Assembly: GCA_016183565.1 (NCBI GenBank)
Contig: JACPEJ010000001.1
Coordinates: forward strand, 486,479-550,478
Direction of reading: 5' to 3'
DNA from: Candidatus Blackburnbacteria bacterium
Lineage (GTDB): Bacteria > Patescibacteriota > Microgenomatia > UBA8517 > UBA10165
DNA length: 64,000 nt
The notes beneath the pieces were generated by a model, which worked only from the letters and a program-made list of their open reading frames with translations, had not been told where the DNA came from and made no database searches. Every line of letters begins with the position of its first letter. Within the stretch, counting starts at the first letter, position 1. Of this stretch, positions 7,744-34,425 are shown one piece after another. A program made the position numbers and the translations under genes.

Positions 7744-9548
7744 CGCCCGAGTCCGAACGTTGGGTAGTTCCCAGACACCTTGTTATTATCCCCGACGGAA
7801 ATGGTAGGTGGGCTCAAAAACACAACCTTCCCATAATTGAGGGCCATTTACGAGGAGCACGGAATATGCTTTCTTTCGCCGATAGAATAGACCAGCTTGG
7901 TATAGAAGTTTGTACGTTTTGGGGCTTTTCTACAGAAAACTGGACAAGGTCGAAGGAGGAGGTTGATGGGATATTTGCTGTTACACAAAATATGCTTGAG
8001 GAAAATTTGGGGGAGTGGGTAGCAAGAGGTAGGAGATTTATGCATGTTGGTAGAAGAGATAGGTTGCCACCTGAACTTCTAGGGACTATAAAGAGATTTG
8101 AGCAAGCAACAGCTCATAACCGAGGAAAGACCTTTGTTCTGGCTTTTGACTATGGCGGTAGGGATGAGATCGTCCGGGCAATAAGTAAAATAGGTGGACG
8201 GCCAGTAGGGGAGGAAGAGTTTGAAAACCTTCTCGATACGGCGGGCCTGCCGAGGCCGGATCTTATCATAAGGACCTCGGGGGAAATGCGAACATCGGGG
8301 ATTTATCCATATCAAGCAGTTTATGCAGAGTTTGTTTCCTCACAGGTTTTGTTCCCTGATTTTGATTTTAAAGAACTTGACTATTGCCTGCGTGAATTTG
8401 GAAGAAGGAAACGTCGATTCGGCGCTAGATTAGAAACTAGAACTGAACAACCATTTGGATGGTTGGGATTGCAAGAAGCGACGTTTAAAAACTTCCTAGA
8501 AGCTGTTTTGCCGAAAATTAACAATGCAACACAGTTATTTTTAGGTAACTGGAGGCATGGGAGATTTTACCGCTCCTTGGGATTGCAAGAGGATGTGGAT
8601 ATGTATAAAGATTTGCTTGTAGGCGGTAAGAAATTAAGAGCGGCTCTTGTTGTGTTTGGGTTTGAGAATGCAGGAGGAGAACCAGAGTTTCGCGATGGAG
8701 TTCTTACAGCGGCCGTAGGGTATGAAGTGATCCATAATGCTTTCTTGATTCACGACGATATAATGGACGCTTCACCTATAAGACGAGGGCAACCGAGTGT
8801 TCACGAAAGATACCGCACAAGGCACGAGCAGGGTGGTGGTATGATAAACCACTCCCAATATGGACAAGCGATCGCGCTCAACACAGGCAGTCTTGGTCCT
8901 CTTAGGGCTCAAGAAGTGTTGTGGAGTATTCAGAATAAACAAGATAGGATTGTAGAGGCGCAAAAGTTTGTTCGTTCTGTTATAGAAATCACGTTACTTG
9001 GCCAAAGGCGGGATATGACTGAGATTTCTCTTGGTAGTCTAACGGCACGGCAGGTGTTTGAGATTTGTCACCAAAAAACGGCAGTTTACTCGGTTGTTGG
9101 ACCTTTTGCATTGGGAGCAATTCTTGCCGGTGCTTCACGAAAAGAGGTTGGTCTCATTAATAGTTTTGGTGTTAATCTTGGGATTTCTTTCCAGATGATA
9201 GATGATCATCTTGGTCTTTTTGGCTCTGAAGATATAATAGGTAAGCCAGTCGGGTCGGATTTGACTGAAGCGAAGAAAACTTTACACTTTGTTAACGCTT
9301 GGGAGCGAGCAGACAATGAGCAAAGGAGATTTTTAGAGAACGTTTGGGGTAATCAAAATGTTACACTTGAGGATATAGATCATGTTAAGCAGTTAGTAGA
9401 AGATTTGGGAGTGAGGAAAGAGGTGTTGGATACAGCGAGAAGGCTTGCCAATAAAGCTAGATGTCTGGTTCCTAAAATATCCACTAGCCTAACTGCCGCA
9501 GCAATTTTGGACGAACTGATAACGTTTGTTACCGAAAGGGAGTTTTAG
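7677..9548 (+). CDS. uppS: Fusion protein: N-terminal undecaprenyl-diphosphate synthase (cis-IPPS, UppS) plus C-terminal trans-polyprenyl diphosphate synthase
   Basis: N-half: HLVIIPDGNGRWAQKHNL...GH..G...TFWGFSTENWTRSKEEV...FDYGGRDEI...DLIIRTSGEMRTSG...RKRRFG, which is canonical UppS. C-half: GGKKLRAALVV, FARM LIHDDIMDASPIRRG, FQMIDDHLGLFGSEDIIGKPVGSDLTEAKKT (SARM variant DDHLG), KT. Single 623-aa ORF. Confidence 0.8.
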   Translation: MQRCDSILLVPALIQMTPEGRTSPESERWVVPRHLVIIPDGNGRWAQKHNLPIIEGHLRGARNMLSFADRIDQLGIEVCTFWGFSTENWTRSKEEVDGIFAVTQNMLEENLGEWVARGRRFMHVGRRDRLPPELLGTIKRFEQATAHNRGKTFVLAFDYGGRDEIVRAISKIGGRPVGEEEFENLLDTAGLPRPDLIIRTSGEMRTSGIYPYQAVYAEFVSSQVLFPDFDFKELDYCLREFGRRKRRFGARLETRTEQPFGWLGLQEATFKNFLEAVLPKINNATQLFLGNWRHGRFYRSLGLQEDVDMYKDLLVGGKKLRAALVVFGFENAGGEPEFRDGVLTAAVGYEVIHNAFLIHDDIMDASPIRRGQPSVHERYRTRHEQGGGMINHSQYGQAIALNTGSLGPLRAQEVLWSIQNKQDRIVEAQKFVRSVIEITLLGQRRDMTEISLGSLTARQVFEICHQKTAVYSVVGPFALGAILAGASRKEVGLINSFGVNLGISFQMIDDHLGLFGSEDIIGKPVGSDLTEAKKTLHFVNAWERADNEQRRFLENVWGNQNVTLEDIDHVKQLVEDLGVRKEVLDTARRLANKARCLVPKISTSLTAAAILDELITFVTEREF

Positions 9549-21062: not shown

Positions 21063-24000
21063 TTAGTCTACACGATGTGGGTTTTTACCGAGGTGCCAAC
21101 GTATTCCACCTCCCAGGTGGAATAGCCAGGAGGCAATTAAAGTGGTAGGAATTAAAAATAAACCTATATATTGGAGGTATTGAGGTAGGAAAAATACTAC
21201 AACATTTCCTTTATTAGTGTTTTCGGGTATGGTCCACGCATTTGCCCAATTATTGTAGATGATATGGTTTTCTAGCTTTTTACCTCGGACAAACGGTAGG
21301 GTTTTGTCTAATGTGTTCGGTATATTGGAAAAGGTGTAGGCGTGCCAGCCTGGGTCGAAGCTCTGATGAAAAACCAGCAAGCTGGGGAGAGAAGAATTGT
21401 TTGGGTTAACAAACTTAATGTCGTTTAAAAACTGATAAGGGATTGGGTAGACCTCAACGTTCTTTAGGTCGTTTTCTGTTTCCTCATTTCCAATAGAGAT
21501 ATTATTAAAGTTTAAGTTGTACCCAATACCATCCGCCTTCATTGGTGGAATGATTAGATAGTCGCTTTCAAAATTAGTGTGGTTGGGTAATTGCACATCT
21601 ATATCCGGCTTGCGGGAATCGGGGTTGAGGATTGCAAACTCAAGCGCCTTTCCTTTAATGTGGCGGCTTTCAATTTTTACTAGATAGGCGTTCTTGTTTT
21701 CCAACTTGTTAAGGATAATAGAATAGCAGTTGTCCGAATTTTTTGAGTGGAAACGTAGATATTTTGTGTCAATTACGACTTGCTCAAATTTCCCGTCAGG
21801 TGGAGGGGTATTACAGGAGAAGGCCTTGTGGTTTAGGAAAAATGGATCCTGTATGCTTAGATATATTTCCGTTTCGGGGGACTTGGGGGTAGTAACTGAT
21901 ATGGCGTTGTCATTCTGTGAAACCGTGATAATACTCTCTAAAATACCAGCTTTCTGTTTGTCGAACTGAATGGTTAGTCTCTCTGCTTCTTTAGGAATTG
22001 TCGAAACGAAGTCGAAACGGTCGCTCTGGTCTTGGATAGTAAAAGGTAGTTCGTCAAGCTTGCGTGTTGTGAGTAGCGAACGATAGGGATAATAAACAGA
22101 CCAGGGAGCTTGGCTGTCCGTAAAGTAATCTCCTTGGTTTAGGTAAGCCTGATCAAGGTGGGTGTAATTATAAAGCGGTTGAATGTTTTTAACATTCCCT
22201 GCGACAACGGTACTTTTTTCCGCCCCGGCTTGGTTGTTTAAACTCACTTTGTATACAGATATATCCCGGATCTCTACCTTCTTGGAGGAAAATGTTTTTG
22301 TTTTTTCGTACTTTGTGTTTGAATTAAGGTAATTTTCAACCTTTTCCGTATACAAATGGCTTCGTGGATTGGCATAAGGAATAATATTTTTGTCCAAAAT
22401 AATAAAAGAGATGTGATATTTCTCTACTAGTTTATCTATAAGAGGAAAGTTTTCAGAATATATAGCATATTCAAGCTGCCAAAAGTAATCTTCATTATAT
22501 TTACCCCAAACATCAAAAGCTCTGTCCATTATTGGCTGCTCTATTCCATACCACAGAAACCCGGATCCTGAATAACCCCAACGGTAAACACTCCAGCCCC
22601 AATTCCATCCTTGAGGAAAGTTGGCGATACGTTCGTTTGGGTTTTGGCTCTTAAAGAAATCAAAAAGTTGGAAATAAGATTGTGGAATGTTGAGTTTTGT
22701 CCTGTCGTACAATAACTTTCCATTGAAGAAAGGCCAGCCAAAGGTGATTAGTGAAAAGGTGACTAGTGGATAGAGTGAAACAAGCATATATTTTTGTGTC
22801 AAAAACTTTTTTGCAACAGGGATTATCTGTGTAATCCCTAAAGTAAACAATATCGCATACAAAAGTGCTAAAGCTATGGAAAATTTAGTGAACGCGACTC
22901 GGAAAGCTTGTTTAAGAACTGGAATGTCTTGAAGGACTTTTGAGATGTAAGAGAATGGTGGGGTGTTTGTGGCAAGAAGGGAGAACACCAGAACAAAAGA
23001 AACTATTAAAAAGAGATTTGCCGGATGTTTTCTAACATTTTTAACGCATGACAGAAAACCCACAAGGATGATACCAAATAATGCATATCCAATTGTCTTA
23101 ACAAATATATTCAAGTGTTGTTCCCAGGGAGCAAAAATTGGGAAAATGTCCCCATTGTTTGTTGCGTCAATGGCTTCGAAAATAAATCCTTTTAAAAGTG
23201 CAACATTAGCTACATCTCCATATTTTTTATTTTTAAGGATAAAGTCCTCAGTTGAAGAGATGTTGTTGTAGGCGTTAAGATATGTTCCGCTGTGGGTTGT
23301 TGTAAAGTAAGACACTGGCAGTAACCAGTAAAGGTTTAAGGTAATTGTGATTACAAAAACTGTAAGGACCCTTTGTAGAGTTTTAAGTGTGAGGCTGTAA
23401 AGATAGTGGCTTCCGAGAAATATCGCCAGTAAAAGCATGTAGACGATAAATAGCGGTGGGATAAAGCCCATACTTGAGGTAAAAATGGTGATTGTTGTGA
23501 AGATGATTAAATTCTTTTTGGCGGGGTTATCCAGAAATCTTCTAACAGACCAGAAAAGCCAGGGAAGAGCAGCAAAATGGATTGTGAAGGGCTCAAGTTG
23601 AATATAAAATTGCTGTGCTGTCGCTAGATTAAAAATATAGAATAACGCGCTTAAAAAAGATGAACCGTTTCGTATCTGTTCGTTTGCGTCTTTAAGAAGT
23701 TGTCTAACTAAGAAAAAAACGCCAAAACTGCCGGCAAAAAGCATTAAAAATGTAAACGTGGAGCGCAGATACTGCTCCGGAATGATAAAAGAGAGGAGCC
23801 AGAGAACAAAAGTGTGGGGAAGAGTTGCGGCATATCCGTGACCTCCGTATGTCCCCAACCCTTGATTAGGTTGCCAAACAGAAGTTAAGGCACGTGTGAA
23901 ATTAAGAGGGAAGTTAAACTCGGGGTGCAAATTATCCCAGCCTGTATACCACGTGCCAAAAGGAAAGTTCTTTAGAAGAAGAATGGCACAAACTAAGGTA

Positions 24001-24080
24001 AGGAGGCTAAGCCAAGGCAGGAGCGATGACTTTCGTGCTTTTTTGATCCATTGCATACAATTGATTGTAGCAAGACTCAA
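21063..24080 (-). CDS. Large polytopic membrane protein (1005 aa), putative glycosyltransferase of the YfhO/DUF2298-like class
   Basis: N-terminal about 600 aa carry many TM helices. C-terminal about 400 aa form a beta-rich extracytoplasmic domain. Context is a glycosylation cluster. No precise motif recognised. Confidence 0.45.
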   Translation of the reverse strand: MSLATINCMQWIKKARKSSLLPWLSLLTLVCAILLLKNFPFGTWYTGWDNLHPEFNFPLNFTRALTSVWQPNQGLGTYGGHGYAATLPHTFVLWLLSFIIPEQYLRSTFTFLMLFAGSFGVFFLVRQLLKDANEQIRNGSSFLSALFYIFNLATAQQFYIQLEPFTIHFAALPWLFWSVRRFLDNPAKKNLIIFTTITIFTSSMGFIPPLFIVYMLLLAIFLGSHYLYSLTLKTLQRVLTVFVITITLNLYWLLPVSYFTTTHSGTYLNAYNNISSTEDFILKNKKYGDVANVALLKGFIFEAIDATNNGDIFPIFAPWEQHLNIFVKTIGYALFGIILVGFLSCVKNVRKHPANLFLIVSFVLVFSLLATNTPPFSYISKVLQDIPVLKQAFRVAFTKFSIALALLYAILFTLGITQIIPVAKKFLTQKYMLVSLYPLVTFSLITFGWPFFNGKLLYDRTKLNIPQSYFQLFDFFKSQNPNERIANFPQGWNWGWSVYRWGYSGSGFLWYGIEQPIMDRAFDVWGKYNEDYFWQLEYAIYSENFPLIDKLVEKYHISFIILDKNIIPYANPRSHLYTEKVENYLNSNTKYEKTKTFSSKKVEIRDISVYKVSLNNQAGAEKSTVVAGNVKNIQPLYNYTHLDQAYLNQGDYFTDSQAPWSVYYPYRSLLTTRKLDELPFTIQDQSDRFDFVSTIPKEAERLTIQFDKQKAGILESIITVSQNDNAISVTTPKSPETEIYLSIQDPFFLNHKAFSCNTPPPDGKFEQVVIDTKYLRFHSKNSDNCYSIILNKLENKNAYLVKIESRHIKGKALEFAILNPDSRKPDIDVQLPNHTNFESDYLIIPPMKADGIGYNLNFNNISIGNEETENDLKNVEVYPIPYQFLNDIKFVNPNNSSLPSLLVFHQSFDPGWHAYTFSNIPNTLDKTLPFVRGKKLENHIIYNNWANAWTIPENTNKGNVVVFFLPQYLQYIGLFLIPTTLIASWLFHLGGGIRWHLGKNPHRVD

Positions 24081-25392
24081 GCAATTTGTCCTTGCTTCGT
24101 GCTATTCCTAAATCACACGACACAGAAGTCAATTTCTCAAGAATTTCTTTATCTTGCGCTTTCAATATTGTATTTGCAAAAGATTTGATGTTGTGAGAAA
24201 ACGAGATTTCACTCTCATTTATGTTGTTTTTACTTATTGCAAACTCCACATCTTTGTTTTTCAATACCTCCCCCATTGCGCGGCTTATCACAAAAGGCTT
24301 TTTGTGGGTGATTGCCTGAGAAAGAGTGGCCGAGCTTCCAATCAGTCCTCGGTAAGGAAGAACAACCAAGTCAGAAGCCGAAAAGTATATACCGATTGCA
24401 TTTTCAGGAACAAAGCCGGTTATACATATTTTCTTTTGATCCTTGGCGCTTGCAAGAACTTGGGCGTAAAACTTTTTGTAATAGGCTTTGTCCTTCAAGG
24501 AATAAGCTTCTCCCCCGGCCAAAATGAGATTGATTCGTGTGAATTGGTTTTGTTGGCGAAGTTTTTTGACTGTTTTAATAATCCAATCCGCACCTTTGTA
24601 GTAAGTAATAAATCCGAAGTAAAGAAGAATAAAATCGTTTTTCGCGACATTAATTTTGGTTCGTGCTGTTTTTTGGGAAACTGTATTTTTCTTTTCAATC
24701 CAGAAAGGGTGGAGGAAAATTTTATTAGGGCTTACGAAGAAGGACAGCCTTTTGTAAATGGCCTCGTCCATAACTACAAAACGGTCAAGTAATATTCCCA
24801 AAGTCTTATAGAAGGCAATAACACCAATGTTTAAAATCTTAACAAGTAGAGAATTTTTCTTGTATCCCAAATGAGGAGCAATAGAATCAAAACTTGTAAT
24901 TACATTGTGTGAATAATATGTAATGTGCTTGCTGGCAAGCTTGATAAGCAACATAAAGGGGAACAAAAGCATGAAGTTTTTTATGCCGCCATTTGTGCAA
25001 AATTCCGAATGGATATCGACGTATTTGACTTTATTGAAAATAGAAAGCCAGTGGAGGATACGAGGAAATAGGGTTGGGTGTCTTTGGTCAAAAACTCGCA
25101 AAACAAGGATGCGTCCTCCAGCTGCCAGTTGGGGTTTGTTGCTTTGGCCTTTTTCTCCGAGCACAACAAAGCGCATATTGTAATCGTGCGCCAGAGATTG
25201 GTAAAGCTCTTTGGTGTACCAGGCGATGCCGTAGTTTTTTTCTCCTTTTTTGGTCTTTTCAGGCCAATCGGAGATTACCAAACGGGTATTTTTGTTGTTG
25301 AATTTTTGAATTAGATTTTGCATGTTTTTGTAGTAGCGGAATTTATTTCGCATGGCTATGTGTAAATTTAAAATAAAGGGGGGAGGCCACAA
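24007..25392 (-). CDS. Family 1 (GT4-like) glycosyltransferase; probable true start at 25353 or 25323
   Basis: C-terminal half ILAGGEAY...ITGFVPENAIGIYFSASDLVVLPY resembles a GT1 nucleotide-sugar-binding domain. The track ORF begins with an alternative TTG. Confidence 0.5.
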   Translation of the reverse strand: MWPPPFILNLHIAMRNKFRYYKNMQNLIQKFNNKNTRLVISDWPEKTKKGEKNYGIAWYTKELYQSLAHDYNMRFVVLGEKGQSNKPQLAAGGRILVLRVFDQRHPTLFPRILHWLSIFNKVKYVDIHSEFCTNGGIKNFMLLFPFMLLIKLASKHITYYSHNVITSFDSIAPHLGYKKNSLLVKILNIGVIAFYKTLGILLDRFVVMDEAIYKRLSFFVSPNKIFLHPFWIEKKNTVSQKTARTKINVAKNDFILLYFGFITYYKGADWIIKTVKKLRQQNQFTRINLILAGGEAYSLKDKAYYKKFYAQVLASAKDQKKICITGFVPENAIGIYFSASDLVVLPYRGLIGSSATLSQAITHKKPFVISRAMGEVLKNKDVEFAISKNNINESEISFSHNIKSFANTILKAQDKEILEKLTSVSCDLGIARSKDKLLESCYNQLYAMDQKSTKVIAPALA

Positions 25393-25441
25393 TCGAGAGC
25401 GAGTTGCTTAATCGAAAGTGGTCTCCCCGTGGGAAACAGTT

Positions 25442-26020
25442 CTAGCCGCCACCGAGCCGGCTGGTGAACTGACCCCAATTGAGGCCAGATGTCCAGATGG
25501 TCACTGGACCATTGGCCACGACGTTGGTGTACAACGTCGAGGGGTTCCTCTGGTCCGGCGTGTGCTGGACAGTTCCGGGCCCGGTCGCGATTCGCGATGG
25601 CACGTCCGTTGTCACGATGTTGGGCCAATTGACCCGAAGGCCTGTGGCCCGAACTTGGACCCCGGAGGCCAAGACGCGGCCGGCTGGGGAGGTCTCCTCC
25701 TCAATCTGCCGAGCCTCGACGGCCAGTCCGTCCCAGGTAAGGCCGGCGGCGCGAAGCCATGCCTCGATTCCCTGGGAGCGAAAGACCGGGTCCAGCTGCT
25801 CTAGCCGAGACCAGTGGGTTTGCACCGAGGCCGTAGCGGGTGCAGCTGTAGCCGCGGGTGGTCCACCTCCGACAGCCGGCGGTGCTGACGTGGCGGTAGC
25901 AACAGCAACCGGGCCGGGTGTTGCCGTTGGCCGAGCCGGACCGAGGGGGTCGCCTACCTCACAGGCTGCTGCCGCCAATGCCAATATCGTTGTCGTGATC
26001 ACTGCGATGATGGTCTTCAT
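25442..26020 (-). CDS. Putative lipoprotein (192 aa) within the high-GC island
   Basis: MKTIIAVITTTILALAAAAC: signal peptide with Cys (lipobox-like), then a Pro/Ala/Thr-rich linker. Confidence 0.5.
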   Translation of the reverse strand: MKTIIAVITTTILALAAAACEVGDPLGPARPTATPGPVAVATATSAPPAVGGGPPAATAAPATASVQTHWSRLEQLDPVFRSQGIEAWLRAAGLTWDGLAVEARQIEEETSPAGRVLASGVQVRATGLRVNWPNIVTTDVPSRIATGPGTVQHTPDQRNPSTLYTNVVANGPVTIWTSGLNWGQFTSRLGGG

Positions 26021-26030
26021 GACTCCTCCT

Positions 26031-26522
26031 CTACTCCCAGATTTGCCGCGCCGTCCAGGCGTCTTGGATAGTGATCAGGATTAGGACGGCGAACAGTGTC
26101 CAGAACGTTACGAACTCGGGCAACCCAACCCTGAAGTTGGTCAAGAACAGGGCTGCCAGAGTAAAGAACACCGATGTACCGACTGCGATTAGGCCACGAA
26201 CGACGCGCTGTCTGGTCCAGAAGCCAGCGGCGCCGGGTGCTACAGCCGGTACACGCAATAGGTAGACGGCTTCGATCACGTCCACTAGGAGCGTGATCAC
26301 CAGCTCGATATTGAGCGCAGCCTGCCTTGTGACGCTGGTCAAGAAGAACAGCGCCCCGAAGGCCAGAATGTCCAAGCCGAGTTCGGCCGGGACCAAGAGA
26401 GTGATGAGCCGACGCCAGAACGACATATTGGATCTCCTTTTTGGGATTTGTGCTAGAACCCTCGGGTTTACTGCAGTCCGAGGGACGACGATGACAACCG
26501 AACCTTCCCTCCTTTCAGGCAC
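26031..26522 (-). CDS. Small integral membrane protein (start possibly M33, nt 26426) within the high-GC island
   Basis: Four predicted TM helices. No motif recognised. Confidence 0.4.
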   Translation of the reverse strand: MPERREGSVVIVVPRTAVNPRVLAQIPKRRSNMSFWRRLITLLVPAELGLDILAFGALFFLTSVTRQAALNIELVITLLVDVIEAVYLLRVPAVAPGAAGFWTRQRVVRGLIAVGTSVFFTLAALFLTNFRVGLPEFVTFWTLFAVLILITIQDAWTARQIWE

Positions 26523-27491
26523 CTATCGGCAGGCCGTGAACCAGATCGTTCCGGCTTGGGTCTTTGGGGACCACACTCCGGGTTGACTGTACCGCACGCC
26601 GTTCACGTCCACGACCCACATGTCGTGGGCCATCAGCGGGCGTGCACGCTCGCTTGAGCTTGCTATGAACTTCCACCCGTTGCCAGGTGAAAGCTGCCGC
26701 AGCTCCCGGGTGAGCCTTCCGATTTCGTCTTCCGGCTGACCGGTTTTCCACTCAAGAAGAATCCGGGCCACCTCGGTGGCGTTGCGCGGGCAGGCAGCAG
26801 TGGGCTGTGTGATAGCCTGTGTTACGGCTTGCTGCGGGCCGCCGTGTTGGTCAACCCAGGCGTGCCAGGCAAACTCCGGACCGTAAACGGTCACGAAAGT
26901 TGCGATCACTTCCTGGGGCTGATTCCAGAATACCTGGCCATCCGCAGCAACTGCGGCACTGTCCCCAAGCTTGAGAAAGATATCCGATTGTTCGGGCCTC
27001 TCAATCTTGAAAACCCAATGGCTTGCGTCACCGTCCCAGTAGGTAAACGTCCGCGCCTCTGCTGGAACCGCAAACGTCGTTACCTCCTCCGGTGTTACCA
27101 CCTGCTGCGCAGCTACCTCGGCTCCCTGCACGAGGGATAGCGTCCTCTCGCCAGGGTTGGGTTGATACTCTGTAGGTCCCACAGGGGTGCACACAGAATT
27201 GGCCCAAACCGTTCCCCAGACTGGACTTTCGGTGCTACCGTCTACACGGCTGACGTTTCCACCCTCTACCTGGAGTGTGTCTCCAGGGTTGGGTGTCCAG
27301 GCTGTCGTGAAAGCAACCACTGCGCCTGCGGGACGGCTCTTGCCGTCGATAAGTACCTGCTGAACAACCCCGACCCACGTGTCGAGGCCTTCGAACGACC
27401 AGCAGTCGGCTGCTGCCACTCTTTGTGGAGTCAACAGCAAGCCAAGTACCAGTCCGATAGCGGCGAGCACGGTGCTCATACTGAGATACAT
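26523..27491 (-). CDS. Secreted hypothetical protein (322 aa) within the high-GC island
   Basis: Signal peptide MYLSMSTVLAAIGLVLGLLLTPQRVAAA. Strong SD. Confidence 0.5.
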   Translation of the reverse strand: MYLSMSTVLAAIGLVLGLLLTPQRVAAADCWSFEGLDTWVGVVQQVLIDGKSRPAGAVVAFTTAWTPNPGDTLQVEGGNVSRVDGSTESPVWGTVWANSVCTPVGPTEYQPNPGERTLSLVQGAEVAAQQVVTPEEVTTFAVPAEARTFTYWDGDASHWVFKIERPEQSDIFLKLGDSAAVAADGQVFWNQPQEVIATFVTVYGPEFAWHAWVDQHGGPQQAVTQAITQPTAACPRNATEVARILLEWKTGQPEDEIGRLTRELRQLSPGNGWKFIASSSERARPLMAHDMWVVDVNGVRYSQPGVWSPKTQAGTIWFTACR

Positions 27492-27608
27492 TTTGGACCT
27501 CCCTTTCCTGTTCCTGCTTGTATTTTTGTTTCCCTGTAAAAGTGCTCCGCTTGAGAGCGGAGAGAACGGTTTTACCTGCGTGGAACCGCTTTCTCCACGC
27601 TCAAAAGA

Positions 27609-28283
27609 TTAGGCGATCTTTTTAAGCGATTTTAAAGAAAATAATTTTGTGCCTACGAACCCTATTACTGACAACATAAGGATGGCGAGAACTGTGTTTT
27701 GGGAACCAGCCTTAGGTAGTGCTTTAATAGGTTTTCTTTCTACACAAACTTGTGCTTTATCTTCATCGTTTTTGTCACCTGTTACAGCTTTGGCAACGTT
27801 AAAATCGCAAGTCTCGAGCTTGTCTTGAGGTAACTTATCGGAGGTAACAACACGGGCCTTAAGTTCCTTTTCAACCACTTGGTCAACTTTTAGATCCTTT
27901 ATCTCGAAAGAGAACTCGCCAGAAACAGGTTCAAGGAGGTTTGGCAAAGTGTCGGTTACTTGGATTTTATCTAAGGTTTTGTCACCAATATTTTTTATTC
28001 TGAGTCTGAAGGTAATTTCATCGCCTGGGGAAAATTTGTGGATACTAGCTGGAATATTATCTTTCCACTCTTTTTCTTTGATCTTTTCAGTGGGATCGAG
28101 GACCTCTTTATTTATTTGAATTACACCTACTGCTGGACATTCGCCACCGTAAGGTGCAGCCACGCCGTATTGAGCGGGACATGGGGCGGCAGCAAAGGTT
28201 GAGGATGTGGCAGCAATAAGCAGTCCGGATACTAGGATTATTGCGGCTCCTATTTTGTTTGCATAAGTTAGAGTGTTTTCCAT
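27609..28283 (-). CDS. DUF11 (conserved repeat domain) surface protein with C-terminal LPKAG sortase sorting signal
   Basis: Signal peptide; ITFRLRIKNIGDKTLDKIQVTDTLPNLLEP (DUF11-like). The C-terminus LPKAG plus a hydrophobic stretch plus KKIA is an LPxTG-type cell-wall sorting signal. Confidence 0.6.
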   Translation of the reverse strand: MENTLTYANKIGAAIILVSGLLIAATSSTFAAAPCPAQYGVAAPYGGECPAVGVIQINKEVLDPTEKIKEKEWKDNIPASIHKFSPGDEITFRLRIKNIGDKTLDKIQVTDTLPNLLEPVSGEFSFEIKDLKVDQVVEKELKARVVTSDKLPQDKLETCDFNVAKAVTGDKNDEDKAQVCVERKPIKALPKAGSQNTVLAILMLSVIGFVGTKLFSLKSLKKIA

Positions 28284-28284
28284 T

Positions 28285-28320
28285 TTACAAAAAACCTGCT
28301 TCCCGAGGGCAGCAGGTTTT
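28285..28320 (-). terminator. Rho-independent terminator downstream of the sortase gene
   Basis: 8-bp stem aacctgct/agcaggtt with a 10-nt loop, followed by a U-run on the minus strand (A-run on plus). Confidence 0.5.
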
Positions 28321-28381
28321 CTAACAATATGGGTTATTCTAACATAGGTGTGTTTATTTTGTCAAGCTTTGTTTTGCACCT

Positions 28382-29269
28382 TTACACACCACCATAGATG
28401 ATTTCTTCTTGACCTGTTTCGCTTCGATTCAGGTTATTTAGATCTGAGGGACTTTCCTCTTTATCTGGGTAGGCGATTACAACCAGTCTTTTCCAGGTAG
28501 TTCCGGGAGGCCAGCAGGTTTGCAAAATTAAGCGTTCTGCCCCATTTTGAGCCTTGTTTAGCCAGGAAACATCATCGGCGTCGACAATATGTTTTTCAGC
28601 AACTCTGTATTTGTACAGTTTTCCATCGTAGAAGACATAGATTTCGTCTTGGTTTTTGGGATCGAGTTCTCTTAAAAGGTAAAATACTGCGTTGTATTGG
28701 GAAACGTTCCAAGGCCCGTTGGTGGAGTGGGCAAAAAGGTAGGTGCCCCCATTTGTTCCTGGTAAAGAGGAGCCTTGGGCATGGGCGATGCCGTTTTTTA
28801 GTGCAGTTGTGTAATCTTTTTCGTTTCCTGCGTCAACATTTTTTATAACCGGAGATCGTGCGTCGATTTTAGGGATGTAGACAGAAAAGTCGAGATTTGT
28901 TATGCCAACTTGTTCTGCGAAAGTTTGAGCGTATTGGCGGTCAGCTTTATCTTGGTTTTGTATTGCCAAAAGTTCTGCGGTTTCTTTTTGCTTAGCGTAG
29001 GTTTGGAGCAAACTGTTTACGCGATAGTTGGTTTCGGAAGAAATAAGCGGGTAGCTGGCAAAACCCAGACCGGAAATACTTGTGATTATAAGCCCAAGAC
29101 CGATTCCTCGGATAAGTCCTAAGGCTGCTTCTGAATCTTGCAGGTGTTCCCATGTTTGGGTGAGCCTGTTATATACTAGCGCAAGACGGGACCCACGCTC
29201 GTAGATTATAATTATTTCCCCGGAATTTAAGCCCCATTTTGCATCGTAAATTACGCCTTGTGCGATCAT
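28382..29269 (-). CDS. Sortase (transpeptidase)
   Basis: N-terminal TM; catalytic triad context TYLFAHST (His), LILQTCWPPG (TLxTC Cys), WKRLVV (Arg). Confidence 0.7.
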   Translation of the reverse strand: MIAQGVIYDAKWGLNSGEIIIIYERGSRLALVYNRLTQTWEHLQDSEAALGLIRGIGLGLIITSISGLGFASYPLISSETNYRVNSLLQTYAKQKETAELLAIQNQDKADRQYAQTFAEQVGITNLDFSVYIPKIDARSPVIKNVDAGNEKDYTTALKNGIAHAQGSSLPGTNGGTYLFAHSTNGPWNVSQYNAVFYLLRELDPKNQDEIYVFYDGKLYKYRVAEKHIVDADDVSWLNKAQNGAERLILQTCWPPGTTWKRLVVIAYPDKEESPSDLNNLNRSETGQEEIIYGGV

Positions 29270-29380
29270 TTTAGTGAGGGTTTAGTAGCCCGTAGTATTT
29301 TATCATGTGGTATTAAAAATCGCTAGTTTAGTAGTTGGTGGCTATTAAGTGGTATGATATTATTGTTTTGTAAAGATTTC

Positions 29381-29455
29381 GCGGGTGTAGTTGAGTGGTA
29401 CAATGCTTCCTTCCCAAGGAAGAGTTCGTGGGTTCGATTCCCATCACCCGCTCCA
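29381..29455 (+). tRNA. tRNA-Gly (anticodon CCC)
   Basis: GCGGGTGTAGTTGAGTGGTACAATGCTTCCTTCCCAAGGAAGAGTTCGTGGGTTCGATTCCCATCACCCGCTCCA. Anticodon loop TTCCCAA; CCA encoded. Confidence 0.8.
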
Positions 29456-29558: not shown

Positions 29559-29626
29559 GTTCAATCTGATAAAAATAGTTGAGCTTGGGAAAAACTACGC
29601 TTAAAGCTATAAAAGAGGCACTAAGT

Positions 29627-30616
29627 TTATTTTTTAGATAAGTCGCATTTGTAGTAACACAAGCCAGTTTTACCAATTATATTTTGTTTTGGAACAAAAC
29701 CCCATTCACGAGAGTCTGAACTGTATGGTCTATTATCTCCTAATACAAAATAACTATCAGCAGGTACAGTTATTTGTTGGCCTTCTTGCAAGAAAGCACC
29801 ACCATAAGTCTGTACATCAGATTTGAGATAAGAACTTTCATCAAGGGGCTGGTTATTTACAAGAACTTTCCCATTTTGTAATGCTACAGTGTCATTTGAA
29901 AGTCCGATGATTCTCTTGATGAAGTCTTTGTCAGGCTCTTTCGGGTACTTAAACACTACAACATCACCACGAGTAGGCTCACTTGATCTGTATACCATTT
30001 TGTTGACAAGGTAGTATTGACCATTCACATAATTTGGCGACATAGCTTGTCCTGCAATTTGGAAAGGTTGTGCAATGAATAAATAAACGATTAAGAAAAC
30101 TGTTGCAGCAGGGATAGGTAAACCGAACACTACAAACAGTAAGCCAAAGGTGACTTTCTGGCCTTTTGTCACCTTTTCTTCTTCAGTTATAGGAATTAAA
30201 ACACCTGTGCTATCTGTTTTGACAACAAAGGTTTTAGCGAGCTTATCGTGCCATGCTTGCCTCTTGCCATTGATGATTACCCATAAATACCCCAAGTTGA
30301 AGATTAAACCAGAGAGTAGTTTTCCGATACTTTCCCGAAGAAGTGCAGAACCAAAGCTAACTGGTTGGTAAGAACCATTAACAACTTTCAACTTTAATAA
30401 CTTTTTCCCTGGAGTGTGTCCTGATTTCCAAATGAATAGTGTTCCATATAAGATTGAAACTATCCAAAATAGCAAATTAAGAAGTACTTTTGCCAATGAA
30501 GCAAGTATGAAGGACAGTACAAGAGTAACTACAAAGAGGATAATTTCGTCAATGATTAAAGCGAGTAGCCGTTCCCAGAACGTTCCTTTCTTATAAATTC
30601 TGTTTTCTATTTCCAT
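29627..30616 (-). CDS. RDD-domain membrane module fused to signal peptidase I
   Basis: N-terminus WERLLALIIDEIILFVV plus TM helices (RDD-like). C-terminus GQAMSPNYVNGQYY...GDVVVFKYP...KRIIGLSNDTV...YFVLGDNRPYSSDSREWG is SPase I. Confidence 0.65.
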   Translation of the reverse strand: MEIENRIYKKGTFWERLLALIIDEIILFVVTLVLSFILASLAKVLLNLLFWIVSILYGTLFIWKSGHTPGKKLLKLKVVNGSYQPVSFGSALLRESIGKLLSGLIFNLGYLWVIINGKRQAWHDKLAKTFVVKTDSTGVLIPITEEEKVTKGQKVTFGLLFVVFGLPIPAATVFLIVYLFIAQPFQIAGQAMSPNYVNGQYYLVNKMVYRSSEPTRGDVVVFKYPKEPDKDFIKRIIGLSNDTVALQNGKVLVNNQPLDESSYLKSDVQTYGGAFLQEGQQITVPADSYFVLGDNRPYSSDSREWGFVPKQNIIGKTGLCYYKCDLSKK

Positions 30617-30717
30617 AATAAGATTAGTATTTCAAAGAAAATTGACAAAAGCAATGATCTTAAAATAATAATTCATCTTTACCGCAAGGATCGCTTTATT
30701 GCACAGCAAGAACTTGT

Positions 30718-31554
30718 TCATTTTAAAAGTCTCTTACTTTGTTTTTTAGGTAAATAATTCCGTGAGGTTATTACTTTCCTGCCGGTTTCTTTTTCCAAAT
30801 TAGATCTGGCATCTCCGGCAATTTTGCCTCCACGCTTTGAGACTTGTTTATTTTTCTCAAACCCTTTGGGATGTTCTGTTTTGGTAATTTCTGTGGTTGC
30901 TGCTTCACCCAATTGGGAAAACAAAAGTTCCAAATCACTCATATGATCACGCAGGTTTTGACGTTTGAGTCCTTTTATTTTCTTATGTTCCGATGGAGTA
31001 ACACCAAAAGTGGCTTTAGATATCTCGGCAGTCAGTATTTTATACTCTTTTGCCAGTTCTACACCATGTTTTTGCCATTCATCCGTCAATTCTTCCCTAA
31101 TGGCAATAGAACGCATTCTTCTTTCGATCCAATCCTCTGGATAGCCTTTGGCTTTATAAAGCGCTCGGGCCCGTTTTTGGGCTAACTCCGGATCTTCTAT
31201 CTCTTGCACCCTTTCATAACCAACCTTGGCTAACCATCTTTTAAAAGGTTCTGCTTTAGGGGAAGGAACCGATTGAATAATTCGGAAAATTCCCTCAGTA
31301 TTTGCACATCTTACTTTTTGTTTTCCTCCTGAAGTTTCTATCAAAAGGGGGTGTTCAATTTGAACCCACCCTTTAGCCAGTTCTTCGTCTCGGTTAAGCA
31401 TATTCTTTAAATATTGTTTGGGGTTTTGCGAATCAGTTAAAGTAGCGATTACGTCAGTAATAACAAACCACCACTCATTTTTATGGATAGTCTTTCTTAT
31501 TTTTCTGTTTCGGAAAACAGCTATTTTAGTTATTTGGGTTATTTCTTGATTCAT
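30718..31554 (-). CDS. Bro-N domain protein (phage antirepressor / DinD-like)
   Basis: FRNRKIRKTIHKNEWWFVITDVIATL resembles the Bro-N N-terminal domain. Basic C-terminus. Confidence 0.5.
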   Translation of the reverse strand: MNQEITQITKIAVFRNRKIRKTIHKNEWWFVITDVIATLTDSQNPKQYLKNMLNRDEELAKGWVQIEHPLLIETSGGKQKVRCANTEGIFRIIQSVPSPKAEPFKRWLAKVGYERVQEIEDPELAQKRARALYKAKGYPEDWIERRMRSIAIREELTDEWQKHGVELAKEYKILTAEISKATFGVTPSEHKKIKGLKRQNLRDHMSDLELLFSQLGEAATTEITKTEHPKGFEKNKQVSKRGGKIAGDARSNLEKETGRKVITSRNYLPKKQSKRLLK

Positions 31555-31700
31555 CTTTATTAAAAATTGTTGCTATACTTTATTATACATAGGAAACCCG
31601 TAATTACTAGTAGCTTTATAAGAGAAAACCAGTTTATTCTTTGGTCGGAGAACTTTTTAGGACTAAATTAGGCTCCAATTCGTACAAAAAATCTGGTAAA

Positions 31701-31716
31701 ATAAGCATAGCTTGAT
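31701..31716. promoter_or_regulatory. Palindromic operator-like motif ATAAGC-ATA-GCTTGAT
   Basis: One of three copies of ATCAAGC-N3-GCTTGAT, located in the divergent intergenic region. Confidence 0.35.
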
Positions 31717-31866
31717 ACTCGCTGGTGCTCGTATTAGGCGAGGAGCTAAATTCTTGGATAAATCCTGTCAGTCTGTGTAACAGTACGTCAGGATCTCCAA
31801 AAGTGACAGAAATAAACAGAAAATTACATTAACTGATACAAACTAGATCAAAAAACAAGTCAAGTT

Positions 31867-32202
31867 ATGTTAGAACAAGAAACAGAAAGAATCTCACCAA
31901 TTGAATATTTGAGAATCCTACGTGACGATTATTCTAATGAAATTCCAGAACAGGTACTACACGGACCAGTCACCAACTCAGATAGAAAGAAATTTAAGGT
32001 TAGAAGGAATTGGTGGAATGGTGTTGTTGGAGGTTTAGGAAGATTGCGGTTAAAAGGTTTAGTGCCCACAGGATTAGAACAAGAAGTACAAGATTTTGTT
32101 GACCATTATTCGTCTGAAGAATTCCACAGTCAACCACTCACTACAGCAGAGGATATCGCAAGAGCAAACGAGATAATTACAAAAATTGTTGGAGATAGGT
32201 AG
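31867..32202 (+). CDS. Hypothetical protein (111 aa)
   Basis: ORF only. No motif. Confidence 0.3.
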   Translation: MLEQETERISPIEYLRILRDDYSNEIPEQVLHGPVTNSDRKKFKVRRNWWNGVVGGLGRLRLKGLVPTGLEQEVQDFVDHYSSEEFHSQPLTTAEDIARANEIITKIVGDR

Positions 32203-32342
32203 TATCATTCAAAGTTGTAGGAAATTTTGAATACCCACTCGTTCTTTAAGAGCTTGCAACTGTAAAACTAGATCTGTTGTGATATAGTCGCCCAGGCCAA
32301 AGTGGTTCGAGCCAATTACGGTATCCAGCTCCATAGGATTTT

Positions 32343-32437
32343 AATCGAACTCGTGGATTTTAGCTTCAGAAAGTCGTTAAATTTCGCTAAAATCTAATTC
32401 TATAACTTAATACCCTAACGGGAATCGAACTGTTTTT
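32343..32437. repeat. Right copy of the roughly 95-bp direct repeat, preceded by a tRNA-3'-end-like fragment
   Basis: aatcgaactcgtggattttagcttcagaaagtcgttaaat...gggaatcgaact. Upstream ...gtggttcgagcc...gctcca resembles a tRNA T-arm / 3' end. Confidence 0.5.
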
Positions 32438-32461
32438 GGGGCGTAAAATTATACCTAATCA

Positions 32462-33538
32462 TCAGTTAGAACATTCAGGATTTCTGGCAATATCCTCTGG
32501 GTCGTCACACATCCTTGCTTTTTGCATCCCTTCTAAGTCATTTATCCCAACTCCAATGTAAACATCCTGCTCTTCAAGCGGTAAGTCTTCAACGCGCCCA
32601 CTGTCAAAGTAAGGAGGACGGTCGCTAAAGTTAGGACCACCTTGTTTAAATTTACAAGGATGAGTAAGACGATATTCTTTTGAAAGGGTCATATCCTCAC
32701 GGCTTTTGAGCCCTGGTATGGCAGCCTGATACCGGGCAAAAACTTCATCTGTCATATAATTAAATACTGAATTCAATTTCTTATATGGCTCACCATTACC
32801 ATTTTTAAACATCGGAGGTATAGCGATAACACCCATTCTCACCTGTGTACCTTTAATTCTTTGGCCATAACGGTCAAGAGCATTCACATAACCAACCAAA
32901 GTTCCTGCTTTAACAAAATGGATTGGTGGATCCTGAAACTGCGGCAAGACATGAGTATGATTCATAGCAAACCTCCACTGATTAAACGGCCACCAAGGAA
33001 TTCCAGATTTAGGGACCATTGTTACCCCTTCGTCAACTAAAGTATTCGGCGCACTACCTAAAATATAACCGTCAAATGGTGCATAGATTCCTATTTTATC
33101 AGGATCGACACTTGCAAGAATGGGGATATAATGCTGCATATTACTAACAGGCTCATCAGAATATTGGTCCACAGTTTGGTGCCCACTGCAACTTCGATAT
33201 TTAGTAAATCTGTGAACTTGATTAAGATCAATAAAATTCTTAGTAATCAAAAAATCTTTCGGCGGTTTATCAGGAGCAAACTGGCTGATTAAACTAAGTA
33301 ATACCAAAATAGTAATCGGAGTAAAAACAATCCACCGGAGGACACGCTTTAACAGAATTTGCTTAACCAACAGTTGAGATAAGAAAGACGAGACAAAGTA
33401 TAGAGGAATCAGAGTTAGCAGCCACACGGGCTGGACAGTTTCAGGATGGGTAAAAAGTAAAAATAAAAAAGAGGTAAGAAGAAATAAAAAAATTGTAATA
33501 CCTATGTTATCCAAATTGGGTTTAAGCAGTTTACCCAT
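32462..33538 (-). CDS. Hypothetical membrane protein (358 aa)
   Basis: N-terminal TM helices, then a Cys-containing soluble domain. No motif. Confidence 0.4.
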   Translation of the reverse strand: MGKLLKPNLDNIGITIFLFLLTSFLFLLFTHPETVQPVWLLTLIPLYFVSSFLSQLLVKQILLKRVLRWIVFTPITILVLLSLISQFAPDKPPKDFLITKNFIDLNQVHRFTKYRSCSGHQTVDQYSDEPVSNMQHYIPILASVDPDKIGIYAPFDGYILGSAPNTLVDEGVTMVPKSGIPWWPFNQWRFAMNHTHVLPQFQDPPIHFVKAGTLVGYVNALDRYGQRIKGTQVRMGVIAIPPMFKNGNGEPYKKLNSVFNYMTDEVFARYQAAIPGLKSREDMTLSKEYRLTHPCKFKQGGPNFSDRPPYFDSGRVEDLPLEEQDVYIGVGINDLEGMQKARMCDDPEDIARNPECSN

Positions 33539-33676
33539 ACCTTTAGTAAATCATAGTTAAGAGCTAGTATCAATAACTTTTTGAATATCTACAATTTTTA
33601 GAAAAAACTGGATCTGGAATTAGAAATTATATCGAATTTCTAATATGCATACTTATACAGTTTTTAGTTCTAAAAC

Positions 33677-33692
33677 ATAAGCAGAGCTTGAT
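33677..33692. promoter_or_regulatory. Palindromic operator-like motif ATAAGC-AGA-GCTTGAT
   Basis: Second copy, about 130 bp upstream of the 33538 start. Confidence 0.35.
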
Positions 33693-33801
33693 TTCTCGCA
33701 AGCTCGAAATTAGACTAAATCGGGTAATAGACCGTCAGACAGGAACAATCTTATGAACTCTGGCAGTCTGGCTAAGATCACGTCAGGAGCTCATCAGAAA
33801 G

Positions 33802-34425
33802 TTATTTTGATGCAGGGGCTTGGCTGATTTCGCCTCGAGGGAGTTTGAGGACTTGGCCTATTTCAATTAGATCTGGATTTTTTACTTCGTTTGTTTGCGC
33901 GATTTTTACCCATTGATAACCATCTCCGTATGCTCTGACTGCGATTCCCCAAAGATGGTCGCCTTTTTCAACAGTGTATATGTCTCCTTGTATTGCTGGA
34001 CCAAAAGTGTTTGTTGCGTCTGTTTTAATAGTTGCTAAGGTGATTTTCTTTGCTTGAACTTCTGGGATTTTAAGTTCTTGGCCTATTTCGATTTGACCGG
34101 GGTGTTTCAGTTCATTTGCATTTGCAATATCAACCCAGTTGTATCCTGAGCCGTAATATTTTTCTGCGATGCCCCAGAGGTGCTCGCCTTTCTCTACCTT
34201 GTGAGTGTTGGGTAAGTTGGTTGGGACTTTCCCTTCTTCTGTTGATGTTGAAGTCTGATTGGTTGTTTGGGGGGCTTGGTTTGAGATGGAAGGTTGTGTT
34301 TGGGCCCTGTTTCGGAAGTAGTTCGCTCCTAGAAAGACAACTGCCAATACTAGGGCTGCGCCGAAGACCATGCTTAGGGCCGATTCGTTGAGCTTTAGAA
34401 ATTTAAGGGTATTTTTAAGATCCAT
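33802..34425 (-). CDS. LysM-domain peptidoglycan-binding protein (two LysM repeats)
   Basis: Two copies of HKVEKGEHLWGIAEKYYGSGYNWVDIANANEL... / YTVEKGDHLWGIAVRAYGDGYQWVKIAQTNEV..., each followed by IEIGQxLKIP. Confidence 0.7.
   Translation of the reverse strand: MDLKNTLKFLKLNESALSMVFGAALVLAVVFLGANYFRNRAQTQPSISNQAPQTTNQTSTSTEEGKVPTNLPNTHKVEKGEHLWGIAEKYYGSGYNWVDIANANELKHPGQIEIGQELKIPEVQAKKITLATIKTDATNTFGPAIQGDIYTVEKGDHLWGIAVRAYGDGYQWVKIAQTNEVKNPDLIEIGQVLKLPRGEISQAPASK

Follow-up and report, generated by a model that had tools for sequence, protein, structure and literature searches.

The window analysed here is a 64,000-nucleotide stretch of DNA from a Candidatus Blackburnbacteria bacterium (contig JACPEJ010000001.1 of assembly GCA_016183565.1), with positions counted from its first letter. 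A GC-rich island at 25,380-27,545 of this window carries three genes, named A, B and C, which encode a lipoprotein-like protein, a small membrane protein and a secreted protein, respectively. The island is located in a low-GC cell-surface locus, between the gene of a GT1 glycosyltransferase and the gene of a sortase substrate. A reading made from the letters of the window, referred to here as the sequence-only reading, had taken the island for a recent horizontal acquisition from a high-GC donor and had named chimeric assembly as the alternative. The comparisons described below favour another interpretation, which is judged reasonably probable, that the island is a cassette, variable and open to horizontal exchange, in a cell-surface locus that is conserved among Microgenomates, ultra-small bacteria of the candidate phyla radiation (CPR), and that it is GC-rich through a process linked to recombination. 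The features of the island and of its immediate neighbours are the following.

21,063-24,080, minus strand: polytopic membrane protein of ~1000 aa, low GC (open reading frame (ORF); no Pfam or PDB sequence match)
24,007-25,353, minus strand: GT1 glycosyltransferase, low GC (PF00534/PF13692)
25,380-25,428, minus strand: terminator-like hairpin GGGGAGACCAC...GUGGCCUCCCC (fold of -27.3 kcal/mol, z = -5.3 against 200 shuffles)
25,442-26,020, minus strand: gene A, lipoprotein-like, 192 aa (ORF; signal peptide and lipobox-like Cys)
26,031-26,426, minus strand: gene B, 131 aa, four predicted transmembrane (TM) segments (ORF; four hydrophobic segments)
26,523-27,491, minus strand: gene C, secreted modular protein, 322 aa (ORF; signal peptide ends VAA, followed by AD)
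27,498-27,503, minus strand: GGGAGG Shine-Dalgarno sequence of gene C (direct reading; six nucleotides before the ATG of C)
27,550-27,605, minus strand: long hairpin between the DUF11 stop codon and gene C (fold of -35.9 kcal/mol for 27,492-27,612, z = -3.0)
27,609-28,283, minus strand: DUF11/CLIPPER-type surface protein, low GC, with a C-terminal LPKAG sorting signal (Pfam and NCBIfam)
28,382-29,269, minus strand: sortase (PF04203, E = 4.7e-22)

The gene content that had been claimed for the island, a lipoprotein, a protein with four TM segments and a 322-aa secreted protein on the minus strand, was borne out, as were the GGGAGG sequence in front of gene C and the neighbours of the island, GT1 on one side and the LPKAG-bearing DUF11 substrate with its sortase on the other. 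Gene B starts at the ATG at 26,426 and has AAGGAG in front of it. The hairpin at 25,380-25,428 is followed by a T-run at 25,364-25,379, a terminator-like arrangement that would end the island transcription unit just before GT1. The hairpin at 27,550-27,605 is the probable terminator of the DUF11 gene and the probable upstream edge of the island unit. Because it is bracketed by strong hairpins and has its own Shine-Dalgarno sites, the cassette looks like a transcription unit of its own.

Composition and integrity of the island

The island features 60.2% GC, compared to 42.3% for the window as a whole. In 200-bp windows the GC content is 0.385-0.46 at 25,200-25,500, rises to 0.60-0.685 at 25,400-25,999, remains at 0.525-0.63 across the island body to ~27,500, and is 0.375-0.425 again by 27,500-27,800. 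The right edge of the island lies at ~27,520-27,545, which is 60-80 bp inside the position of 27,600 given earlier. High-GC composition was also looked for elsewhere in the 64 kb, and all of the 1-kb bins outside the island are at or below 0.478 GC; for 500-bp windows the maximum outside the island is 0.522 and the minimum inside it is 0.568. The GC content at third codon positions (GC3) is 0.69 for A, 0.75 for B and 0.65 for C, 6.5-8.9 standard deviations above the value of 0.366 ± 0.043 (maximum 0.469) determined for the 42 other genes of the window, and the overall GC content of gene A is 0.65. GC is elevated at all three codon positions of the island genes, and in B as well as in many A genes GC3 is raised beyond GC1 and GC2, the values for the first and second positions. 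The codon usage of the island resembles that of a high-GC organism, with a GAC fraction of 0.91 vs 0.28 in the background, an ATC fraction of 0.79 vs 0.16, and no TTA codons. With the window's own genes as reference, a codon-adaptation index reaches 0.44-0.56 in the island compared to 0.73 ± 0.05 in the background, so the check that had been proposed sets the island apart from its host. The amino acid composition is shifted as well, with 12.5% Ala in the island vs 6.5% in the background, 1.1% Lys vs 6.7% and 4.0% Trp vs 1.4%. The spacers within the island have a GC content of 0.47-0.52, compared to 0.406 for the non-ORF DNA of the window, an enrichment that is weaker than that of the third codon positions. 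These results confirm the composition switch of the sequence-only reading, with a sharp step in GC and codon usage at both ends and GC-rich third positions.

RNA genes were rejected as the source of the high GC content, since an Rfam scan of 20-32 kb returned only two tRNAs, even at E ≤ 1.

A chimeric assembly of the DNA of two organisms would also produce an abrupt change in composition, which is the only observation in its favour, and this explanation is given next to no weight. Three Logan contigs that were assembled from separate sequencing runs (L001, L002 and L003, from SRR12113424, SRR12113430 and SRR12113385) cross both junctions at 100% identity, with mismatch-free matches to 21,094-29,455, 21,094-28,336 and 24,268-29,406 of the window. 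These spanning contigs are 5.1-8.4 kb long and none of them terminates at an island edge. They are three of the four additional Logan contigs, all assembled from separate runs, that encode a protein identical to C. Diverged genomes of other projects (SRR22387855 and SRR22388039) have the same architecture and the same GC step, and the diverged loci L004, L044 and L045 bear the same GC-rich module at the same place. The chimera is contradicted by these three independent single-run assemblies and three diverged genomes, all of which reproduce the architecture. Core genes with normal GC flank the island on both sides, including those for DnaE (the DNA polymerase III alpha subunit), GatCAB, ClpB, an aminoacyl-tRNA synthetase and ribosomal protein L19.

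Some heterogeneity was observed in the gene of the ~1000-aa membrane protein. At 21,094, inside the 3' end of this gene, two Logan contigs from the strain of the window come to an end. The differences between the close strains L015 and L031 (2701-5148) and between L020 and L021 (~8649-8756) are concentrated in the same gene, near its 3' end in the case of L020/L021, and A and GT1 are identical in these pairs. The clustered differences and contig ends suggest strain heterogeneity or recombination tracts in this gene.

A conserved slot and the proteins encoded in it

The distribution of the cassette was determined by searches with A and C that covered 5.8 billion proteins, 1.84 billion cluster representatives, 185,579 species genomes, 241 million metagenome records and 2.9 million viral contigs. 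About 40 loci were retrieved from genomes and metagenomes, all of them through A or C. In every locus with enough sequence (~30 loci: L004, L005, L008, L011, L012-L019, L020-L043, L044 and L046-L049) an A-family gene is located directly upstream of GT1. The GT1 orthologues at this slot are 38-60% identical to that of the window by tblastn, the gene of the ~1000-aa membrane protein comes next after GT1 wherever the contig reaches that far, and a DUF11 gene, with or without a sortase gene, is usually found upstream of the slot. The order of the locus is thus sortase, DUF11 sortase substrate, cassette, GT1 and ~1000-aa polytopic membrane protein. The organism names of the records include Levyibacteriota, Roizmanbacteria and Gottesmanbacteria, in addition to the Candidatus Blackburnbacteria of the window. 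The cassette ranges in size from A alone (0.4-1.5 kb) to C-B-A (2.1 kb), and every cassette includes an A-family gene. The view that the island had been inserted into a glycosylation cluster is not supported by this distribution, in which the A family is a standing member of the locus.

The closest relatives of the window's cassette reproduce most of its organization. Among the 5.8 billion proteins C has a single other close homologue, which is 66% identical and is encoded on L004, a contig from an unrelated project. L004 has the order sortase, DUF11, C, a 120-aa ORF, A, GT1 and ~1000-aa protein. Its flank proteins are 53-58% identical to those of the window (45-58% across L004, L044 and L045), and its island stretch has a GC content of 0.55-0.675 vs 0.33-0.46 in the flanks. 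A profile search with C revealed two further relatives, L044 and L045, both in the same slot. L044 features sortase, DUF11, a C-like gene, a B-like gene with four TM segments, an A-family gene, GT1 and the big membrane protein, and L045 features DUF11, a C-like gene and a small TM gene. The GC3 of these two cassettes is 0.67-0.79, compared to 0.29-0.34 for their flanks. The 134-aa protein at the position of B in L044 is 30% identical to B and shares the MSxWRRL start, B is replaced in L004 by the unrelated 120-aa ORF, and a hidden Markov model search gave no B relatives past L044 and L045. Other small multi-TM proteins are encoded directly upstream of A in L011 and L046. The C-B-A composition, with a B protein of four TM segments and a secreted C protein, occurs in the window's lineage and in at least L044.

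A conserved antisense gene in the cassette was considered and rejected: there are long plus-strand ORFs in the window, but opposite A in L004 they reach only 76-78 aa. Long antisense ORFs are a usual by-product of GC-rich DNA.

The A family comprises 16 relatives by single-sequence search and 73 by profile search of the 5.8 billion proteins. At the N-terminus A proteins have either a lipobox-bearing signal peptide or a TM anchor; a linker rich in Ala, Pro and Thr and then the A domain follow, and some of the proteins also carry a LysM domain or a C-terminal Cys...CRPL domain. The A domain spans ~120 aa and features the conserved motifs ARQ[IP]EEET, WPNxVTTD and YTNV. The window's protein reads ...ILALAAAAC followed by EVG, which is lipobox-like as judged by eye against a PROSITE-type pattern. 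The Cys position is matched in L008, L011, L016, L017, L027, L032, L044, L046 and L048, and some members have a TM anchor instead. The AlphaFold2 model of the A domain has a predicted local distance difference test score (pLDDT) of 97-98 over residues 70-185 and consists of two helices followed by a beta-sandwich-like body. Foldseek searches with this domain gave no match at E ≤ 0.001 in the PDB or BFVD, and the A domain is without a described family or detected fold relative. Comparison of the A-domain profile with PDB sequences gave one weak match, to the uncharacterised 101-aa protein 4ebg_A (E = 0.008, 19.6 bits), for which the fold searches gave no support.

The C protein features a signal peptide, an N-terminal Cys-bracketed domain, a 'DGQ..ATFVTVYG' motif and a C-terminal domain. 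Its family has 3 members plus relatives of single modules. P0022 combines the N-terminal domain of C with the CRPL domain, P0023 combines the CRPL domain with the C-terminal domain of C, and both proteins occupy the same slot in L044 and L045. C consists of modules that have been shuffled between the proteins of the cassettes, which are mosaics of shared modules. The AlphaFold2 model of C is poor (pLDDT 45). A, B, C and the large membrane protein gave no Pfam or NCBIfam family match, and for the latter single-sequence and profile searches gave no credible PDB match either. From its topology, the ~1000-aa protein might be a GT-C-type glycosyltransferase.

The context of the cassette proteins suggests that they would act at the cell surface together with the products of the flanking sortase, pilin-like and glycosyltransferase genes. 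A would be presented on a flexible stalk that may be glycosylated, with the Ala/Pro/Thr linker as the plausible site of this modification. The membrane partner of A would be B or, as in L011 and L046, a different small multi-TM protein. This proposed assembly follows from the export signals, the lipoboxes, the linkers, the occasional LysM domain, and the constant company of the sortase, substrate, GT1 and membrane-protein genes.

Several further observations were made on the retrieved loci. Metagenome-assembled genomes (MAGs) that are labelled 'uncultured Gammaproteobacteria' or 'Pseudomonadales' bear a low-GC locus of CPR type with the same synteny (L013/L005 in CAZLGV010000001.1 and L014 in CAZPUU010000047.1, and likewise L016 in CAZTBN010000003.1 and L017 in CAYILS010000038.1), and the labels of these third-party MAGs are probably wrong. 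L008 (1962-2318) and L011 (1891-2271) have Avd-like genes (PF05635 23S_rRNA_IVP, PF22296 bAvd) beside large TPR proteins, which may be accessory genes of diversity-generating retroelements. The Avd-like genes are ~8 kb upstream of the slot, occur in these two loci only, and have no counterpart near the island of the window. A TraG/TrwB-like ATPase (DUF87, TrwB_AAD_bind, DUF8128) is encoded directly downstream of the large membrane protein in L005 (15333-17516) and L047 (13480-15642) and could be tied to DNA transfer or secretion at the locus. Dense toxin-antitoxin genes (HepT/MNT, ParE/Phd, HicA and BrnT/CopG) flank the locus in L046 (14381-15966 and 6367-6835) and L048 (13729-15115), which is consistent with a recombination-prone, variable neighbourhood.

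Exchange of cassettes and the GC excess

Horizontal movement of the cassettes is indicated by the comparison of A with its neighbours. The pairwise identities of the A domain and of GT1 are only weakly correlated (r = 0.39), and the neighbour-joining trees of the two are incongruent. The GT1 proteins of L017 and L032 are 90% identical, compared to 45% for their A domains. A blastn alignment of the same two loci has 82% identity from 70 bp past the A stop codon and 93% identity in the 86-bp upstream leader, with no nucleotide similarity between these segments, and it has the form of a clean cassette replacement between conserved flanks. In L026 the A allele groups with the L015 clade (65-67% identity), whereas the adjacent GT1 belongs to another clade (42-43%). 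Fourfold degenerate sites were compared between the window (WIN in pairwise comparisons) and L004. The identity in excess of expectation at these sites is 0.01-0.06 (z < 1) in the flanking sortase, DUF11, GT1 and big-protein genes, compared to 0.23 (z = 4.4) in C and 0.14 (z = 2.3) in A. An excess that is limited to the island means that the last common ancestor of the window and L004 is younger for their island copies than for their genomes. By this evidence, cassettes are swapped between lineages and the flanks are inherited vertically. The exchange takes place within a pool that is limited to these CPR bacteria, and even the closest copies are by no means recent.

A non-coding leader of ~86-130 nucleotides was observed upstream of A in L032 (702-829), L018 (4000-4129), L017 (3003-3095), L041 (158-177) and L042 (45-64). 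The leader is 91-93% identical among genomes with coding DNA at 76-82% and contains a hairpin with a GNRA loop, ATAACAAC-GAAA-GTTGTTAT. It does not correspond to a tRNA, and the window lacks it. The leader may serve this sub-clade as a regulatory RNA or as an anchor for the recombination that exchanges cassettes.

A single recent acquisition by the window genome from a high-GC donor, possibly the host of an episymbiont, would account for the sharp step at both ends and for the foreign-looking codon usage of the island. This scenario is very improbable given the remaining evidence. The same module occupies the equivalent position in L004, L044 and L045, the flank proteins of which have diverged to the identities of 45-58% given above, and the A family holds the slot across Microgenomates in a site search that, working through A and C, cannot retrieve empty sites. 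The nearest other copy is 66-85% identical in protein sequence, with fourfold degenerate sites that are 77-86% randomised, and does not support a recent event. The donor search that had been called for was carried out and found a C family of 3 members and an A family of 73. The 73 A homologues are all from metagenomes or CPR MAGs, and those with visible context are all in the same slot of low-GC Microgenomates genomes. The 185,579 species genomes gave 8 loci, which are likewise of CPR type. No member of the A or C family was found in a GC-rich context in the whole search space, and no homologue in any high-GC genome, so the proposed donor, host or otherwise, is unsupported. Of the original claim, horizontal movement is borne out by the trees, the L017/L032 swap and the WIN-L004 fourfold sites, but the recent import from a high-GC donor is not.

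Mobile and variation systems were considered as well. No integrase-like ORF was found between 21 and 31 kb and no flanking repeat above chance, with an 11-nucleotide match at chance level as the only candidate. The nearest tRNA gene (tRNA-Gly) is located 1.8 kb from the island, past the DUF11 and sortase genes. An integrative element was rejected on these three grounds. A viral origin was rejected since there is no A relative in the 2.9 million viral contigs and no BFVD fold match, and a diversity-generating retroelement or hypermutation system was rejected since there is no meaningful repeat pair in 24.8-28.2 kb and A is invariant between strain pairs.

Other genes of the window were noted in the course of this analysis. 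The tRNA-Gly(CCC) gene adjoins the sortase gene both in the window (29,381-29,455) and in L004 (650-721). This tRNA was rejected as one that serves the GGG codons of the island, as GGG is used less in the island than in the background (0.13 vs 0.27). Just past the tRNA-Gly gene and a fused RDD/signal-peptidase I gene, a protein with a Bro-N domain, a family common in phages, is encoded at 30,718-31,554, within a stretch of lower GC (29,600-34,000, 0.36-0.40) that may be the remnant of a mobile element. Another large surface-type protein of 1061 aa, with a weak SdrD B-like domain, is encoded at 3014-6199; it has a raised GC2 of 0.55 and an overall GC content of 0.46, yet an ordinary GC3 of 0.37.

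The GC excess of the window's island is shared by most of the family. In a set of 25 distinct lineages, GC3 has a median of 0.63 in the A domain and a mean of 0.37 in the adjacent GT1. The difference between A and GT1 is positive in 21 of the 25 lineages, with a median of +0.24 and a maximum of +0.59 (Wilcoxon p = 5e-5). The largest excess is that of L005, with 0.92 for A vs 0.33 for GT1, and the A genes of L008 (0.33), L027 (0.22) and L035 (0.36) have a low GC3 and no excess. In L005 the 358 bp of non-coding DNA after A have a GC content of 0.57, beside a GT1 gene of 0.36. In the GC-rich pairs WIN-L016, WIN-L019, L005-L016 and WIN-L028 the identity at fourfold degenerate sites equals that expected from composition, i.e., these sites are saturated. 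Saturated sites in pairs that are still GC-rich mean that the shared GC-richness is not the residue of one ancient import, and on this evidence it is a standing property of the cassette pool rather than the fading trace of an import.

The origin of this standing excess is the point on which the explanations differ. As a tentative proposal, the cassettes at this slot are actively driven to, and held at, a GC3 20-60 points above that of the host by a local process that is linked to recombination. Recurrent recombination at the slot would feed a process at the level of DNA, either a repair of heteroduplex DNA that favours GC or a selection for GC of greater efficacy, that keeps the cassette GC-rich, and no high-GC donor organism would be required. 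Recombination rate and GC content are positively correlated in 82% of 146 bacterial species (PMC11879095), and the two hypotheses for this link are GC-biased gene conversion (Lassalle et al. 2015) and the efficacy of selection (PMC11879095). A force at the level of DNA fits better than codon selection, since all codon positions and the non-coding DNA are raised. A two-state decay model, which is rough and assumes passive decay in low-GC hosts, was applied to the synonymous divergence of WIN and L004. From a starting GC3 of 0.8-1.0 it predicts 0.49-0.66, compared to the observed 0.60-0.73, a result that leans towards active maintenance and is not decisive.

The main rival to a recombination-linked bias is a GC-rich reservoir, not yet sampled, that reseeds the slot repeatedly with copies that then drift towards the GC content of the host. 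The reservoir could be a GC-rich Microgenomates lineage, a CPR plasmid or phage, or the hosts. The low-GC copies of L008, L027, L035 and L020 would then be old residents and L005 a fresh arrival. Several findings are in keeping with this explanation, which is rather unlikely but to be taken seriously. The GC3 of the cassettes ranges from 0.22 to 0.92 independently of the GC3 of the host (r = -0.09), the codon usage is like that of a high-GC organism, the non-coding DNA of the cassette is enriched in GC too, and cassettes demonstrably move between lineages. Its difficulties are that the very large searches gave no A or C member in any GC-rich context, that there are no near-identical cassettes in different hosts (the best pair is 78% identical in nucleotides), and that decay from such a source, by the same rough model, would leave a GC3 of 0.49-0.66 compared to the 0.60-0.73 observed in WIN and L004.

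A third explanation, which is doubtful, is selection on the nucleotide or codon sequence itself, in which GC-rich codons that are rare in the host, or mRNA structure, are favoured in the operon. Such selection could slow the translation of the exported proteins, tune expression or modulate read-through into GT1. The greater rise of GC3 than of GC1 and GC2 in B and many A genes, the use of host-rare codons reflected in the low adaptation index, the preference for C over G at fourfold degenerate sites of the coding strand, and the recurrence of the feature in 21 of 25 lineages speak in its favour. The DUF11 protein next to the cassette is also exported, however, and its gene has an ordinary GC3 of 0.19-0.35, and the lineages of L008, L027 and L035 are without the bias. 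The GC enrichment of the non-coding cassette DNA likewise counts against it, and the shift in amino acids (more Ala and less Lys) points to a force at the level of DNA. High expression was rejected as the cause on the single example of ribosomal protein L19, the GC3 of which is just 0.37.

There are also several points that limit the interpretation preferred here, that of an exchangeable cassette held GC-rich by recombination. The study of recombination rates ascribes the effect on GC to selection rather than to biased conversion, and the effects in bacteria are small compared to the +0.24 to +0.59 in GC3 observed here (PMC11879095). In three-taxon parsimony on these very diverged sequences, the counts of AT-to-GC and GC-to-AT synonymous changes flip with the composition of the outgroup. 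As the GC3 of cassette and host are uncorrelated, a shared external pool fits at least as well as an equilibrium reached in place. A is identical within each of the close strain pairs L015/L031 and L020/L021, which means that exchange is infrequent on short time scales. Retrieval through A and C is blind to loci that have GT1 and the big membrane protein but no cassette. Finally, the function of the cassette proteins is drawn solely from signal peptides, lipoboxes and neighbours, with no family match for A, B, C and the large membrane protein and no fold match for A.

Significance and comparison with known systems

Atypical GC content and codon usage are routinely read as signs of recent foreign DNA, with their fading as a rough clock. 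The A family, by contrast, is far richer in GC than its genomes at one syntenic position in lineages of several candidate phyla, over a time in which its synonymous sites were completely turned over. Either a local force holds the composition of the cassette or a hidden GC-rich pool feeds the surface loci of CPR bacteria. If a local GC drive is at work, no GC-biased conversion or equivalent process seen so far in a bacterium would match it in strength and in the sharpness of its bounds, and a locus could have an atypical composition as a lasting feature that does not serve as a clock of foreign DNA. The locus provides a compact natural test of whether recombination raises bacterial GC content through biased conversion or through selection. 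The cassette proteins are candidates for the host-contact surface of uncultured CPR episymbionts, as they are exported, modular and encoded beside sortase, pilin-like and glycosyltransferase genes. In addition, binning and chimera filters that use GC content could wrongly excise such loci from CPR genomes. No description of this Microgenomates locus, or of GC-rich conserved genes in CPR genomes, was found in the literature.

The cassette shares with classical genomic islands the sharp discontinuity in GC and codon usage, the exported or surface proteins and the horizontal movement. Unlike these islands, it is without an integrase or att-like repeat and does not abut a tRNA gene, it is located in a conserved syntenic slot of many diverged lineages, and it has no donor clade in the databases. 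Classical islands are expected to drift towards the composition of the host, whereas the cassette is GC-rich even between copies with saturated synonymous sites.

Surface loci of the cassette type include the O-antigen clusters between galF and gnd in E. coli and the capsule loci between dexB and aliA in pneumococci. The Microgenomates locus resembles them in its conserved flanks, in a middle part that is replaced by divergent or non-homologous alleles, in its discordant trees and atypical composition, and in its surface function. O-antigen and capsule loci are typically lower in GC than their genomes, whereas the Microgenomates cassette is far above the GC content of its genome. It also encodes small exported proteins rather than the enzymes of sugar pathways, and its exchange crosses lineages that belong to different candidate phyla according to NCBI taxonomy and record names.

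The exchanged cassette is richer in GC than the flanks that are not exchanged, which is like the link between recombination and GC content described for bacteria (PMC11879095). Unlike that link, the effect in the cassette is local, very large (a median of +0.24 and a maximum of +0.59) and sharp-edged, and it alters amino acids. The genes of gene transfer agents have a GC content above that of the genome, which is ascribed to selection for cheap amino acids (PMC7360931). Like those genes, the genes of the cassette encode exported or released proteins and are persistently richer in GC than the host genome. In contrast to them, the cassette is enriched in the costly Trp (4.0% vs 1.4%), and its shift is strongest at synonymous positions and reaches non-coding DNA. 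The synonymous and non-coding shift and the Trp enrichment mean that amino acid cost does not explain the GC content of the cassette. The island has the character of a surface locus of the cassette type or of a compositional island, with a compositional behaviour that sets it apart from these known systems.

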